A stretch of DNA of 64,000 nucleotides from an uncultured Gammaproteobacteria bacterium. GTDB lineage: Bacteria; Patescibacteriota; Microgenomatia; Daviesbacterales; UBA10151. The notes beneath the pieces were generated by a model that worked only from the letters and a program-made list of their open reading frames with translations, did not search any database and was not told the DNA's origin. Of the stretch, positions 1,372 through 5,244 are shown one piece after another; position 1 is the stretch's first letter; the number at the start of each line of letters is the position of its first letter. Made by a program: the position numbers and the translations under genes. The stretch is from the NCBI GenBank assembly GCA_964392925.1, contig CAYMRP010000001.1, positions 165,585-229,584 on the forward strand, given 5' to 3'.

Positions 1372-2206
1372 TTAAATTAGCAGCTATAAAATCAGCGATT
1401 TTCTTACTTATAAATAACACTCCACTTGGACTTGGGTGAATATAATCATCATTTCTAATTAAATATTGTTTAGCATTTCCAGACGAGTCAAGAGACGGCG
1501 TAAAAATATCAATCACCGGAATCCCCTGAGACCGCGCAAACTCCATATGGTTTTTTATATATGAATCGCGCTCCAAAGCCCATTGTTCTCTAACTTCTGC
1601 GCTTAAATCCTGAGTATTTTTAGCGTAGGTCTCTTTATTCGCGCCTATTGTTCCTACAAAAACTAATTTCTCTTTACCGGAAGTAGTTGCAACAAATTCA
1701 ACTAAATCTTCTAATATCTCAGTTTGCTTCTTTAATCCGCCTTCATTAAACTCCGACAACGGATTATGTCCAAACGATTCAACTAGTAAATAATCAAAAT
1801 CAATATCTTTTATTGGCGCGAAATCCCGTCCGGAATGATAAGTTGTAGAAACCATCCTTTCTTTAGCCGATATAATACTTGTCGCCCCATACCCATAATT
1901 TAACACCTCAAAAGTTTTATCCGGATAATACTCATTTAAATATCCTCTTAGTTCATCAGTATTACCTAATGTTTCAGTCATCGAATCGCCTAAAATCACG
2001 AAAGTGTAGTCATGCGGATATTTAATTTTGCCCGACTGCGTACTGGGTTGTGAATCTACTTCACTTAATTTTTTGAAAGGGGGAGGGGGTTTTAAAGAAT
2101 ATTTTTCTATTAGATCAGGCCCAAACTTAAACGCCACAGCGCTTCCAAACAAAATAACTAGACCAATACAAAATAAAAAAAATTTCGGCAGACGTTTAAT
2201 ATACAT
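1364..2206 (-). CDS. SGNH/GDSL-type hydrolase with N-terminal TM anchor
   Basis: FVILGDSMTE (GDS block) after N-terminal hydrophobic helix. Confidence 0.55.
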   Translation of the reverse strand: MYIKRLPKFFLFCIGLVILFGSAVAFKFGPDLIEKYSLKPPPPFKKLSEVDSQPSTQSGKIKYPHDYTFVILGDSMTETLGNTDELRGYLNEYYPDKTFEVLNYGYGATSIISAKERMVSTTYHSGRDFAPIKDIDFDYLLVESFGHNPLSEFNEGGLKKQTEILEDLVEFVATTSGKEKLVFVGTIGANKETYAKNTQDLSAEVREQWALERDSYIKNHMEFARSQGIPVIDIFTPSLDSSGNAKQYLIRNDDYIHPSPSGVLFISKKIADFIAANLIK

Positions 2207-2223
2207 TACAAACTTAGGAATTT

Positions 2224-3051
2224 CTAGTTTCTGGGGATCTTGATAACTACCCCAACCTCTATACTATCAGGATTGGAGATATTATTTGCTTTAGCAATTG
2301 CATCATATTTGCTGATATCGCCGTATGCTCTGCCTGCGATCTTAGACAACCAGTCATCAGCTTGAATAGTGTATGAATCACCAGTTATCGCTTCACCCCA
2401 TGTTGTTTGATTCATAGCTCCGCCTGTGCCTGCATCTTCCATTTTTGGAGCCTCACTTGCTTCAGCCATAGGTTCTTTGCTTGGCTCAGGAGATGCTTTT
2501 TCTGCAGCTTCCTCAGTAGCAACGGGTGATGCAGCTGGTGTAGCGCTAGCTTCAGTCATAGCTTCAAGTCCTTCAACTTTAGGTATATTTAATTCCTGAC
2601 CAACTTCTATATTTTCATTACTTAAATTATTATCTTTAACTATTTCGGAGTATTTAGAACCCTCTCCGTAGTATTTCTGAGCTATCAGGAATAATGTATC
2701 TCCTTCTTTTACTGTATATTTACCAGGAAGATTTTCCTTTTTAACATCTCCGTTTTCATCCATAGTTTGTTCAGCCATTGGCGTGACGTTGCCGGTCTCG
2801 TCTTCTGATTTATTGAAGTAATTAAAGATTAATACTCCCAGTACAACTACAATTAAAGCTCCTAAAATTAAATTTAAGTAGGATTGATTCTTCTCTAAGT
2901 CATTTTGGATTTTATCAAGAAAATTATTCTCTGATTTTTTAGGAGTGGATTTTGATTCTCCACGGTCAACAGTTACTTTGCTTTCAGAAGCTCTTGTTAC
3001 AGCTGCAGTTCTTTTTGCTGTTTTGGTTTTTTTGTTTGTTTTTGTTGCCAT
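2224..3051 (-). CDS. LysM-repeat peptidoglycan-binding membrane protein (2 LysM domains)
   Basis: Two LysM motifs (YTVKEGDTLFLIAQKYYG..., YTIQADDWLSKIAGRAYG...) after basic N-terminus plus TM helix and acidic/Pro-rich linker. Confidence 0.7.
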   Translation of the reverse strand: MATKTNKKTKTAKRTAAVTRASESKVTVDRGESKSTPKKSENNFLDKIQNDLEKNQSYLNLILGALIVVVLGVLIFNYFNKSEDETGNVTPMAEQTMDENGDVKKENLPGKYTVKEGDTLFLIAQKYYGEGSKYSEIVKDNNLSNENIEVGQELNIPKVEGLEAMTEASATPAASPVATEEAAEKASPEPSKEPMAEASEAPKMEDAGTGGAMNQTTWGEAITGDSYTIQADDWLSKIAGRAYGDISKYDAIAKANNISNPDSIEVGVVIKIPRN

Positions 3052-3189
3052 GTCTGTAACTCCCTATAACTATTTCATTCACATTTGTGAAAAATAACTA
3101 CAGGCAGTGTAGGTTGATTTTTACACTACGCACCACACATCTGTCAACTAGATCAAAATATAGCAATATCTTGACTATCTTTTCCTGTA

Positions 3190-4104
3190 ATGTATATTAC
3201 ACCTATGGCTGACAGAAAAACATTCCATCCTGAATTATATAGAGACGCTGCTATCCCTTTGTGGGAGAGGTCCAGAATTATAAAAGATCATATAGAGAAA
3301 TCCCTAATAACAGAGTCGAGTGAAAGATCTCTCCTTATGGGTTTTTCAGATCTTAGATTTACCTGGGGTCGTTATAACCGTAGCCAGGAGCGGGAGTTCG
3401 AGCTTCTCGAATGGGAAAGGCAAAGACAAGCAGTACTCATTGCAGGTATAGCCTCCGGTTTAGGAATTAAAGAGCAGGATTGCTTCGATTTACTTCCGGA
3501 CAAATTTCCTGAGCGGTTAGAATCTTATAATAGATTAGGACTGGACACCCCTCTACTCGTTCCCAGGTTTACGAGAGTATCATGGGCAAGCGCTGTTCAT
3601 GCAGCAAGCGAGACAACTTTTTATCCTGAGGCGGTAACATTAGATTATGATCTAGATCCTTCTAGGGTTGGGGAATGGCAGGATCCGAGAGGTGTTAAGA
3701 TCCCCCAGCAACCTTTCGCGACATGGATAAAGATCCCTCCTGTTGTTCAGTATGATATTTATCCTGATAAAGACTCTCTCCAGCGAATTCGCAATCCGGA
3801 AATAGACGAAGTTGCCGAAGCTCCGGCAATTGCAAGAGTTATATTAGATCCCGATGCTAGAGGTGCAACTCACTGGGATGGACTAGCCTTGGGCTCTTTG
3901 AGGAGGGAATCAGCCCCCATAAGATTCACAGCAATGAATCTTCATGATCTAATAGGGTCGCGAATAGGAGAATATGGTGTTTTATCCTTACGTAAACCCC
4001 TCTCGGATGGAGGACCTTCCTGGCTAAGCAGGACACACATAGATGATGATCCAGAACAAAGAACGCCGGTTATCTGTAGCAGAGAAGTAACTACGAGACA
4101 ATAA
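3190..4104 (+). CDS. hypothetical protein, G+C-richer orphan (likely real start at 3205 MADRK...)
   Basis: Long ORF with visibly higher G+C than neighbours; TTGACT-16-TATATT promoter-like element just upstream; stop codon fused to a 21-bp copy of the tRNA-Asp 3' end. Confidence 0.5.
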   Translation: MYITPMADRKTFHPELYRDAAIPLWERSRIIKDHIEKSLITESSERSLLMGFSDLRFTWGRYNRSQEREFELLEWERQRQAVLIAGIASGLGIKEQDCFDLLPDKFPERLESYNRLGLDTPLLVPRFTRVSWASAVHAASETTFYPEAVTLDYDLDPSRVGEWQDPRGVKIPQQPFATWIKIPPVVQYDIYPDKDSLQRIRNPEIDEVAEAPAIARVILDPDARGATHWDGLALGSLRRESAPIRFTAMNLHDLIGSRIGEYGVLSLRKPLSDGGPSWLSRTHIDDDPEQRTPVICSREVTTRQ

Positions 4105-4122
4105 ATGCGAGACCGACGGGAC
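4102..4122. repeat. 21-bp direct repeat copy of tRNA-Asp 3' end (taaatgcgagaccgacgggac); second copy 4231-4251
   Basis: Identical 21-mer at 4102-4122 and 4231-4251; the second copy is the genuine 3' end (T-stem/acceptor) of the minus-strand tRNA-Asp. Confidence 0.8.
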
Positions 4123-4201
4123 AACACGCACTTTTCCTGCGTAAAAGCCGAACTCCTCAAACTTTGTTTGATATTTCGACTCCCTTGCTGGTCTAATTTC
4201 C

Positions 4202-4230
4202 AAAAAAGCCCAGACAAGCTGGACTTTTTG
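4202..4230. terminator. bidirectional intrinsic terminator (A-run, short GC hairpin, T-run)
   Basis: aaaaaagcccagacaagctggactttttg lies between the convergent ORF 3190-4104 and tRNA-Asp. Confidence 0.45.
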
Positions 4231-4236
4231 TAAATG

Positions 4237-4508
4237 CGAGACCGACGGGACTCGAACCCGCGACCTCCTCCGTGCATGAAATCCAATACTTTCGTAATGG
4301 CATGGACTATATCTTCACCTTTCCTAAAAGGTTTAGGTGCTTCGGTATCTAGTCTCTACGGCGCTCCGCCAAATTCTGGCGGTTCCCACGGTGTTCACAT
4401 ATCTTTCGACTTAGTCTTCACCGTTATCCCGAAATTATTCATCCTAAAGTTTCCTTTAGAAGCTGCACGTCTACAGGGAGGCGCTCTAACCAACTGAGCT
4501 ACGGCCTC
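4237..4508 (-). tRNA. tRNA-Asp (anticodon GUC) interrupted by a 198-nt group I intron; exons 4473-4508 and 4237-4274
   Basis: Exon 1 gaggccgtagctcagttggttagagcgcctccctgt and exon 2 cacggaggaggtcgcgggttcgagtcccgtcggtctcg-g rejoin to a canonical tRNA with anticodon loop CUGUCAC. 3' half matches E. coli tRNA-Asp (GGUCGCGGGUUCGAGUCCCGUC); discriminator G73. Confidence 0.8.
4275..4472 (-). ncRNA. group I intron (small IC3-like, Azoarcus tRNA-Ile-intron-like) in anticodon loop between tRNA positions 35/36
   Basis: 5' exon ends in U; intron begins AGACGUGCAG with GCAG able to pair with exon CUGU (P1, U-G at splice site); intron ends in G. Contains GUAGAGACUAGA, the element found in the P7/J8-7 region of the Azoarcus intron; no ORF inside. 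Confidence 0.7.
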
Positions 4509-4528
4509 TCGCAACTATGCCATATCCC

Positions 4529-4556
4529 ACGCTCTGCGCGCTGAGCTACGGCCTTA
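4529..4556 (-). repeat. degenerate duplicate of tRNA-Asp 5' region (acceptor/D-arm: ggccgtagctcag..gagcg)
   Basis: ctgagctacggcc and gctct blocks repeated 43 nt upstream of the real tRNA 5' end; overlaps last codons of the LAGLIDADG ORF. Confidence 0.6.
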
Positions 4557-5244
4557 AAATACTTTTCAAACCTTTATCATACTTCAGCCTTTTTCTTTCT
4601 AGGTGAGGTAAAACTAAATTAGGGTATAAAAAGTCATACAATTCTACAACATCCTTTCCACTATAAGCAAGGCTATAGGCACCGCTATGGAAATATAATG
4701 ATCCCACACCTATCCCCAATAATGCTGCTATCTTGGATCGTATGGTTTCCAAAAAAATCCTATTGCCGCATCTAAGATTCAAAATAAAATAATTGATCAC
4801 TCCCGTCCTGTCTTTTCTTGCTGAACTATTAAAGTAAATTGAACCATCTCCATCAAAATATCCTCTGATAAAATGTCCGAGAAATGAGTCTGGGATAGGG
4901 GGGAATATTAACGTTTTACTTTTAGCTGGAGTAAAACCAATCTCACCAAATCTGTTAAATAGTTTCTTGCTTCCAATTTGGAGAGAATAACTAGTTTTAA
5001 AATTACCTGCTCGTTTATAGACCTCTATTTTATTAGTTAATTTTAATAATATTTGGATGGTTAATATAAGCTGATAATCAGTTGAAGTAAAAGCCACATA
5101 ACAAGATCCCCTCTTGTTCTTATACATGCACCCATCAGATGCAAAAAGACCTAAGACATATGCACACTCAGCTGACCAAGTATTAAAGAAGCTTTCCACA
5201 TATCTTGGATTTAGGATCATCCCTTTGCATATTTTACCACTCAA
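4546..5244 (-). CDS. LAGLIDADG homing endonuclease (double-motif, free-standing)
   Basis: Two dodecapeptide motifs: LGLFASDGCMY and IRGYFDGDGSIY; size 232 aa typical of monomeric two-domain LAGLIDADG enzymes. Confidence 0.8.
   Translation of the reverse strand: MSGKICKGMILNPRYVESFFNTWSAECAYVLGLFASDGCMYKNKRGSCYVAFTSTDYQLILTIQILLKLTNKIEVYKRAGNFKTSYSLQIGSKKLFNRFGEIGFTPAKSKTLIFPPIPDSFLGHFIRGYFDGDGSIYFNSSARKDRTGVINYFILNLRCGNRIFLETIRSKIAALLGIGVGSLYFHSGAYSLAYSGKDVVELYDFLYPNLVLPHLERKRLKYDKGLKSILRP

Follow-up and report, generated by a model that had tools for sequence, protein, structure and literature searches.

The window considered here, a stretch of 64 kb taken at its full length, is a piece of chromosome from a member of Candidatus Daviesbacteria, in the Candidate Phyla Radiation (CPR, or Patescibacteria), as judged from homologs of its PolX protein. 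From the start of the window, the genes run from a Branch-family glycosyltransferase through a GDSL hydrolase, a LysM protein and an apparently orphan open reading frame (ORF) to a tRNA-Asp gene on the minus strand, a LAGLIDADG endonuclease gene on the same strand, and genes for PolX-PHP, LemA, a SET-domain protein and HtpX; the wider window is housekeeping chromosome, with genes for GatA/B, the Dap pathway, LexA, UvrC and CysRS. The 3' end of the tRNA-Asp gene occurs a second time downstream of the gene, where this distal copy touches the stop codon of the orphan ORF. Where a tRNA 3' end is duplicated beside an odd gene, the usual practice is to infer the boundary of a genomic island, and an initial annotation of this DNA had read the repeat as the footprint of an integrase that brought in the orphan. 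Comparison with relatives shows this inference failing: the repeat is ancestral, and the cargo lies beside it, not within it. We propose, with confidence only somewhat better than even, that the distal copy forms the 3' arm of an ancient tRNA-Asp-derived duplicate that has been kept as a structured element (unit 2), adjoined by a slot in which cargo genes are swapped.

The repeat, TAAATGCGAGACCGACGGGAC, has two exact sites in the window, the same two are returned when up to three mismatches are allowed, and none of 100 shuffled sequences contained a match. It is made up of 15 nucleotides of the tRNA-Asp body, through the discriminator G, followed by a six-nucleotide trailer, CATTTA (on the minus strand GTCCCGTCGGTCTC-G-CATTTA), and the copies agree at all 21 positions. 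The proximal copy is the true tRNA end, as first annotated, the exons of the window gene being 100% identical to intronless tRNA-Asp genes called by ARAGORN in relatives. Equally, the first three bases of the distal copy on the plus strand, TAA at 4102–4104, are indeed the stop codon of the orphan ORF (3190/3205–4104). Both copies are present in L001 and L002 (the loci of relatives being labelled L001–L021), which cover this strain region in two assemblies made independently. An assembly artefact is thereby ruled out; the two contigs are uninformative on selection because they are identical to the window over 1500–5108. Among the four tRNA genes of the window, only that for tRNA-Asp has duplicated ends. 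A small ORF of 43 codons (4105–4233), which runs from an ATG in one repeat to a TAA in the next, was judged a coincidence of the TAAATG sequence with a period divisible by three.

Ten other lineages were recovered by using the PolX and LAGLIDADG proteins as anchors. Three loci share an intact second copy with the window. L013, whose PolX is 82% identical to that of the window, has an exact GTCCCGTCGGTCTCGCA at +129; L021 (75%) has an exact copy at +129, followed by a terminator of its own; and L019/L020 (77%) has GTCCCGTCGGTC-CGCA at +125. Relative to the window, this is the same 16-mer in L013 and L021 (17 nucleotides with a flanking A) and a one-deletion variant in L019. None of the three has an intron in tRNA-Asp or a LAGLIDADG gene, and L013 has no cargo either; in L021 and L019/L020 the module is inverted and the question of cargo does not apply. 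The 3' arm is degenerate in L004 (97%; intron, LAGLIDADG gene and a different ORF of 268 amino acids as cargo) and in L006/L007 (77%; intron and LAGLIDADG gene, no cargo), and L004 and L006 retain the 5' arm and first hairpin of the element described below. At most a remnant is left in L003 (80%; no intron, no LAGLIDADG gene, a DUF218 gene as cargo). There is no second copy in L005 (81%; intron, LAGLIDADG gene, 178-amino-acid ORF), L012 (83%; no intron, no LAGLIDADG gene, 225-amino-acid ORF) or L015 (80%; no intron, no LAGLIDADG gene, a zeta-toxin-like gene and a 200-amino-acid ORF), nor in L009/L010 and L011, which are more distant by PolX and have a LAGLIDADG gene beside an intronless tRNA-Asp (no cargo in the former, a different gene context in the latter).

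The second copy therefore predates the orphan gene, as it is found in L013, L021 and L019 without intron or LAGLIDADG gene and in L013 without any cargo as well. The four lineages in which it is intact, the window included, have mutual PolX identities of 72–82% and take in the deepest branch, L021, so the duplication must be older than these species and unrelated to orphan, intron and endonuclease; the 125–129-bp spacing is found whether or not any of these is present. In L013 the slot is empty and the repeat is kept, and relatives lacking the orphan have the second copy at +129, +129 and +125, which contradicts the idea that the repeat is an attachment-site (att) footprint of the orphan's arrival.

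What lies between the two copies? The 108-bp spacer had been described as a bidirectional terminator. This description fits one part of it, a hairpin just after tRNA-Asp with flanking runs of A and T; the other ~75 bp consist of a conserved 5' arm and two hairpins, which together with the distal copy make up unit 2 (Table 1). An equivalent hairpin with a T-run follows tRNA-Asp in most relatives that were read, the exception being L015, in which the tRNA is directly adjoined by a convergent ORF; a consensus terminator scan made no call at the window's hairpin.

Table 1. Features of the tRNA-Asp locus, in positions of the window
Feature	Position	Strand	Remarks
Cargo ("orphan") gene	3205..4104	+	299 amino acids from ATG 3205 (304 from 3190); rare uncharacterized family; strain-specific
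Distal copy of the repeat	4102..4122	-	Exact 21-mer; provides the 3' strand of the helix that closes unit 2
Unit 2, ~95 nucleotides	4103..4197	-	From covariance model and folding
Unit 2, 3' arm	4109-4122	-	Preceded by linker GTT
Unit 2, hairpin P3	4126-4142	-	ACGCA-GGAAAAG-TGCGT
Unit 2, hairpin P2	about 4147-4180	-
Unit 2, 5' arm	4181-4194	-	AGACCAGCAAGGGA; pairs with the distal copy in the minimum-energy fold
Terminator-like hairpin after tRNA-Asp	4202..4229		A-run, GTCCAGC/CTGGGC stem, T-run; bidirectional by its flanking runs; read from sequence
Proximal copy of the repeat	4231..4251	-	T-stem, acceptor 3' strand and discriminator G of tRNA-Asp, with 6-nucleotide trailer
tRNA-Asp(GUC), exon 2	4235..4274	-	From anticodon position C36; 40/40 identical to tRNA-Asp of L003, L013, L015, L019 and L021
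Group I intron, 198 nucleotides, ORF-less	4275..4472	-	Between anticodon U35 and C36; RF00028 match
tRNA-Asp(GUC), exon 1	4473..4508	-	36/36 identical to intronless relatives
Partial copy of tRNA 5' end	4541..4554	-	AGGCCGTAGCTCAG; located 46 bp upstream of the matching stretch of the real tRNA 5' end; includes the TAG stop of the LAGLIDADG ORF
LAGLIDADG endonuclease gene, free-standing, two-domain	4546..5244	-	Directly upstream of tRNA-Asp; Pfam LAGLIDADG_3 4.5e-15, LAGLIDADG_1 1.1e-5

In the predicted fold of unit 2, the copy of the tRNA end, (G)TCCC-GT-C-GGTCT(C), forms a helix with a 5' arm of the form (G)AGACY-A-GC-AA-GGGA(C). This closing helix, the AGACYAGCAAGGGA arm with the tRNA-end copy, encloses two inner hairpins and no more, giving a three-way junction. 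The z-scores of the minimum free energy are -5.2 for L013, -3.4 for L021, -3.0 for L019 and -2.6 for the window, against about 0 and -1.5 for the degenerate L004 and L006. Hairpin P3 is ACGCA/TGCGT, CCAATTTC/GAAATTGG, GCTT/AAGC or CTTTTT/AAAAAG depending on the lineage, a complete change of sequence with pairing kept, and in the outer helix of L019 both strands have changed compatibly (GGGACT with GGTCC versus GAGACC with GGTCTC). In a six-sequence alignment (A4, RNAalifold), pairing is found in 89.5% of cells versus 37–55% with slid partners, and the covariation score is 0.322 versus about 0.1; the observed values were reached in none of 500 shuffles. Six pairs have changed on both sides among these six sequences, two of which are degenerate and all of which served to derive the structure. 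The AGCAAGGGA of the 5' arm is invariant in six of six lineages, and the element can be described by the pattern tRNA-Asp, ~50 nucleotides, AGCAAGGGA, ~60 nucleotides, GTCCCGTCGG. Two conserved G-U pairs, the G-U in the GC/GU step and the U-G in AGACU/GGUCU, would read as A-C mismatches in the opposite strand, which favors an RNA made from the tRNA strand.

Conservation across the four intact lineages is uneven: mean pairwise identity is 93% in the linker and 3' arm and 87% in the 5' arm, 72% in the trailer and terminator, 69% in P2–P3 and 55% in the DNA just downstream. A covariance model built from six lineages scores the window element at 79.3 bits (E value 2e-17) and finds a single match at each locus and no other in the 169 kb scanned, the whole window included. 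The repeat is accordingly not a member of a dispersed family, the finding that would have undone its link to tRNA-Asp, and we rejected the idea of a miniature inverted-repeat transposable element on the same ground; nor does the window hold any copy of the 21-mer beyond the two, as the search with three mismatches had indicated. Unit 2 matches no Rfam family, and neither ARAGORN nor Rfam RF00005 at any threshold called a tRNA cloverleaf (D, anticodon and T arms) in the elements of the window, L013 and L021.

The 5' arm may also pair with the real tRNA 3' end, which would enclose the terminator in one long hairpin (window 4103–4251, minus strand; L013 1826–1974, minus strand); in L013 this alternative has a predicted energy of -59 kcal/mol and a z-score of -7.8. 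Having two pairing partners, the 5' arm could be part of an alternative-structure switch, a possibility raised by the folding models.

Based on these comparisons, we propose the following model for the origin and upkeep of unit 2. In several species of Candidatus Daviesbacteria the element lies just past the terminator of tRNA-Asp, and it most likely arose when the tRNA-Asp gene, or its ends, underwent tandem duplication long ago. Like tandem tRNA duplicates and pseudogene fragments, unit 2 resembles tRNA-Asp at both ends and lies head to tail with it, 119–129 bp downstream: the element begins about 119 bp and ends 129 bp past the corresponding tRNA positions, and in L004 and L006 the 5' arm (GAGGCTAGC) equals the tRNA 5' end (GAGGCCGTAGC) but for a gap of two nucleotides. 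The second terminator that follows unit 2 in L021 also speaks for tandem duplication. Unlike such duplicates, unit 2 has an interior unrelated to tRNA, conserved arms and apparently covarying hairpins, which would be unexpected of a neutral pseudogene. Selection on the helix would keep the 3' arm identical, helped from time to time by gene conversion, with the tRNA 129 bp away as donor; that the copies of the window agree four nucleotides further into the trailer than those of L013 and L021 suggests that such conversion between copies does occur at times. The element would probably act as RNA within transcripts that read through from tRNA-Asp, its acceptor-stem-like helix with the tRNA's own 3' sequence being recognized by tRNA end-processing enzymes, or stabilizing or terminating the transcript.

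Several observations weigh against this proposal. Unit 2 is dispensable: the 3' arm has degenerated in both L006 and L004, the latter being the nearest relative (PolX 97%), and the element is absent from L005, L012 and L015, with at most a remnant in L003. A strong terminator-like hairpin stands between the tRNA and unit 2, and because there is no evident room for a promoter between the two, and the promoter scan lists no minus-strand promoter-like site there, transcription of unit 2 would require read-through. The covariation evidence is thin, coming from six sequences with a structure derived from those same six. The tRNA likeness of the 5' arm is in part automatic, following from its complementarity to the shared 3' strand, and only the extra TAGC is independent. 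Finally, gene conversion alone could keep the 3' arm identical to the tRNA.

A rival view takes unit 2 as a non-functional relic, a decaying tandem pseudo-copy of tRNA-Asp whose 3' arm is kept identical only by gene conversion and whose inner hairpins are ordinary terminators of convergent genes. We consider this unlikely, though well worth weighing. Six of ten lineages have a degenerate element or have lost it, among them L004, the one closest to the window; the identity running into the trailer in the window resembles a conversion tract; and a partial duplicate of the tRNA 5' end (4541–4554, also in L012) shows that tRNA fragments do accumulate here. A relic would not readily explain why the 5' arm, for which there is no gene-conversion donor, has its AGCAAGGGA invariant in all six lineages, why the closing helix of L019 has changed compatibly on both strands, or why the 129-bp period is kept despite differing inner sequences.

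How far might a function of unit 2 reach? tRNA-like or tRNA-processing elements are known as plant mitochondrial t-elements, the mascRNA of MALAT1 and the tRNA-like domain of bacterial YrlA/Y RNAs. As in these, the 5' and 3' strands of unit 2 form a helix mimicking an acceptor stem; its 3' strand, discriminator base and trailer match those of the real tRNA exactly, and the whole sits within a tRNA transcription unit. Unlike them, it has no cloverleaf, T-loop or D-loop and is not called by ARAGORN or Rfam, and its processing is hypothetical; the sole YrlA match (17.7 bits, E value 0.74) falls over the real tRNA exon. We speculate, as a rather doubtful extension of our proposal, that unit 2 could be an undescribed functional mimic of tRNA-Asp in CPR bacteria, serving as a substrate for RNase P, RNase Z or the CCA-adding enzyme, or a switch or decoy for tRNA-Asp maturation. 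In the former case, the closing helix of the read-through RNA would copy the acceptor and T-stem 3' strand, the discriminator base and the trailer of tRNA-Asp; in the latter, the 5' arm would pair either with the tRNA's own 3' end or with the distal copy. For CPR biology, unit 2 is a candidate for a new tRNA-derived structured element tied to tRNA-Asp.

It is conceivable that an integrase acted here long ago, inserting an element into the tRNA-Asp 3' end of an ancestor and duplicating ~17 bp, after which all but ~110 bp of the insert was lost and the rest became fixed. A direct repeat from the T-loop or T-stem to the end of the tRNA is typical of tRNA att cores. In two-copy genomes, the distal trailer is GCATTT(T)AT, as in the tRNA of the single-copy L005 and L012, while the proximal trailer in L013, L021 and L004 is GCAGAT..., as would be expected of attL versus attR, and the slot adjoining the distal copy is a cargo hotspot. 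Like the att sites of tRNA-integrating elements, for example those of P4-type tyrosine integrases, the locus thus has an exact direct repeat of a tRNA 3' end (15 nucleotides plus trailer) and a strain-specific gene of atypical base composition in a hypervariable slot beside it. Unlike them, it has no integrase nearby and its cargo is outside the repeats, with repeat and spacing shared by cargo-less relatives; between the repeats lies a conserved folded element, common to L013, L021, L019, L004 and L006, which holds the inverted complement of the repeat. Neither this complement nor the apparently covarying hairpins would be expected of an island remnant. Single-copy genomes do exist (L005, L012 and L015), and the two-copy state spans the deepest split, L021.

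Searches for the machinery of such an event gave no support to it. The scan for an integrase in the wider window, which the first reading invited, found no integrase or recombinase domain in any of 41 ORFs across the 64 kb, and no recombinase was seen among the genes called at the loci of relatives. For a matching attP, a 24-mer of the tRNA end returned no match in the viral collection IMG/VR, to which the search was confined, and a 16-mer returned 15 chance matches in high-GC phage DNA without flanking similarity; the unit-2 pattern itself gave two chance matches in high-GC phage coding DNA. Among the marks of an att site, the tRNA 3' repeat is present, while a recombinase, foreign DNA between the repeats with an empty site and a matching attP were not found. 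An ancient scar is improbable in our view, and three of the findings also speak against the notion of a collapsed or remnant recent island: the conserved inter-repeat element, the 41 ORFs without an integrase and the absence of an attP-like viral match.

A by-product of homing, in which sloppy repair of double-strand breaks made by the LAGLIDADG or intron system duplicated the exon ends, is suggested by the presence of both an endonuclease gene and a group I intron at the tRNA and by the 14-nucleotide duplicate of the 5' exon end that carries the endonuclease stop codon. As an account of the 3' repeat it was rejected as very improbable, being contradicted by L013, L021 and L019, which have the 3' duplicate without intron or endonuclease, and by L005, which has intron and endonuclease and no 3' duplicate; homing may possibly account for the placement of the endonuclease gene beside the 5' duplicate. 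Recent integration of the orphan at tRNA-Asp, with the two 21-mers as attL and attR, is scarcely credible even though the repeat is exact, the orphan strain-specific and GC-atypical and its stop codon in contact with the repeat, since the orphan lies outside the repeats, no integrase was found in the 41 window ORFs, and L013, L021 and L019 show the repeat at the same spacing without the orphan, L013 without any cargo.

While the repeat is not the scar of its insertion, the orphan is a real gene and genuine variable cargo at a tRNA-linked hotspot. The idea that it arrived as cargo survives to this extent: it is strain-specific, GC-atypical and present in none of ten relative lineages, and the 21-bp repeat is simply not the mark of that arrival. 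The ORF is G+C-rich as first described, at 0.449 versus a window mean of 0.389, which places it in the top 1.7% of 900-bp windows, and a promoter-like site (3171–3198) lies at its 5' edge. A word-indexed search with the protein returned only the protein itself, as expected of an orphan; the label is nevertheless too strong, because an exhaustive phmmer search found 16 remote homologs (best 48% identity, E value 2e-43), for a family of 17 members in 1.84 billion representatives. The homologs are unnamed singletons on short contigs, and the conserved motifs of the family include LPxxFPER, PLLVPxF, WxDPR, HWDG and DLIGSxVGS. No member has a Pfam match, and no sequence match was found in the PDB. 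Prediction with AlphaFold 2 from the single sequence was useless (mean predicted local distance difference test score, pLDDT, 31), and an alignment-based model reached a pLDDT of 76.9 and a predicted template-modeling score of 0.81; because this confident model has no Foldseek match in the PDB or BFVD, the protein may represent a new fold.

Homology with relatives ends at ~3169, at the LysM promoter, and resumes in unit 2. In the slot between these two points (~3170–4100 in the window; compared in L003–L015), nearly every lineage has a different gene or none: the rare-family protein of the window, the 268-amino-acid ORF, DUF218, the 178- and 225-amino-acid ORFs, the zeta-toxin-like kinase with the 200-amino-acid ORF, or nothing. 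We regard the orphan as probably one of many alternative genes for this slot. No recombinase was seen at the slot in the window or in relatives, and exchange by homologous recombination in the conserved flanks, following uptake of DNA, is thus the most economical mechanism and probably the one at work. That a small slot should house a different gene in almost every species, with no recombinase present, bears on gene acquisition by these reduced genomes. The overlap of the orphan's stop codon with the trailer (TAAAT) would follow simply from cargo abutting unit 2; because an unrelated ORF in L004 also stops (TGA TAA) at the equivalent trailer, we take the overlap as cargo abutting an AT-rich trailer, not as a functional fusion. 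The opposite side of the tRNA varies too, with an 87-amino-acid ORF, HicAB, an RRM protein or LAGLIDADG.

The trailer and terminator of L013 and L021 are 95% identical, with PolX just 73% identical, which hints, from sequence comparison, that the module has been exchanged horizontally. Near the tRNA the sequence is a mosaic, with a terminator that differs between the window and L004 and a 5' arm and P2 that the two share. In L019 (3265–3464) and L021 (3391–3594), tRNA-Asp and unit 2 are inverted together relative to PolX and LysM.

The most interesting by-products of the analysis are the intron of the tRNA gene and a LAGLIDADG gene that ends inside it. Neither ARAGORN nor Rfam at its gathering threshold calls the tRNA-Asp of the window, because the 198-nucleotide group I intron splits the gene and standard tRNA finders miss it. 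A local search with RF00028 gave a full-length model match of 41.5 bits (E value 3.9e-9), below the gathering score of 50. The boundaries read as ...CTGT/AGAC...CATG/CAC, so that U is the last base of the 5' exon and G that of the intron, and together with the core match and the exact absence of the intron from intronless alleles this identifies a group I intron. The intron is present in the window, L004, L005 and L006/L007 and precisely absent from L003, L012, L013, L015, L019 and L021. In literature searches of incomplete coverage, neither a group I intron of tRNA-Asp nor any tRNA group I intron from CPR bacteria turned up; the tRNA-Asp intron is apparently unreported, such silence being weak evidence of novelty.

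The LAGLIDADG protein has two domains (PF14528, residues 26–101; PF00961, residues 127–207). Homologs overlapping the tRNA 5' end occur at the same place in L005 (3513–4190), L006 (4001–4663), L009 (4001–4693) and L011 (1463–2191), and although the gene is patchy across relatives, it is always directly 5' of tRNA-Asp where present. Its reading frame terminates within the tRNA 5' end (...AGG CCG TAG), and the frame of L011 reaches 45 nucleotides into the tRNA. Of the lineages that share identical tRNA exons, four have both the intron and the endonuclease and six have neither, which suggests that the two may form a collaborative-homing unit; the more distant L009 and L011 have the endonuclease beside an intronless tRNA-Asp. 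In this pair the host gene is a tRNA of a CPR bacterium, not a phage protein gene, and the endonuclease is a LAGLIDADG enzyme with a putative cleavage specificity and an ORF that ends in the tRNA 5' end. A free-standing LAGLIDADG gene with an apparently unreported tRNA-Asp intron would thus be a possible case of such a unit in a cellular genome of the CPR.

The partial copy of the tRNA 5' end upstream of the gene, AGGCCGTAGCTCAG, has the same arrangement in L004, and L012 has a similar upstream fragment (AAGCCGTAGATCAG plus a CGCG-rich spacer) without any LAGLIDADG gene. Relative to L015, this upstream duplication (4494–4554, minus strand) resembles an insertion of ~46 bp. At the other end of the locus, all 188 of 188 differences between the window and contig L001 fall in the region of the Branch-family glycosyltransferase gene (598–1500), with 1500–5108 identical, a pattern that suggests a recombined, strain-variable surface-glycan gene.

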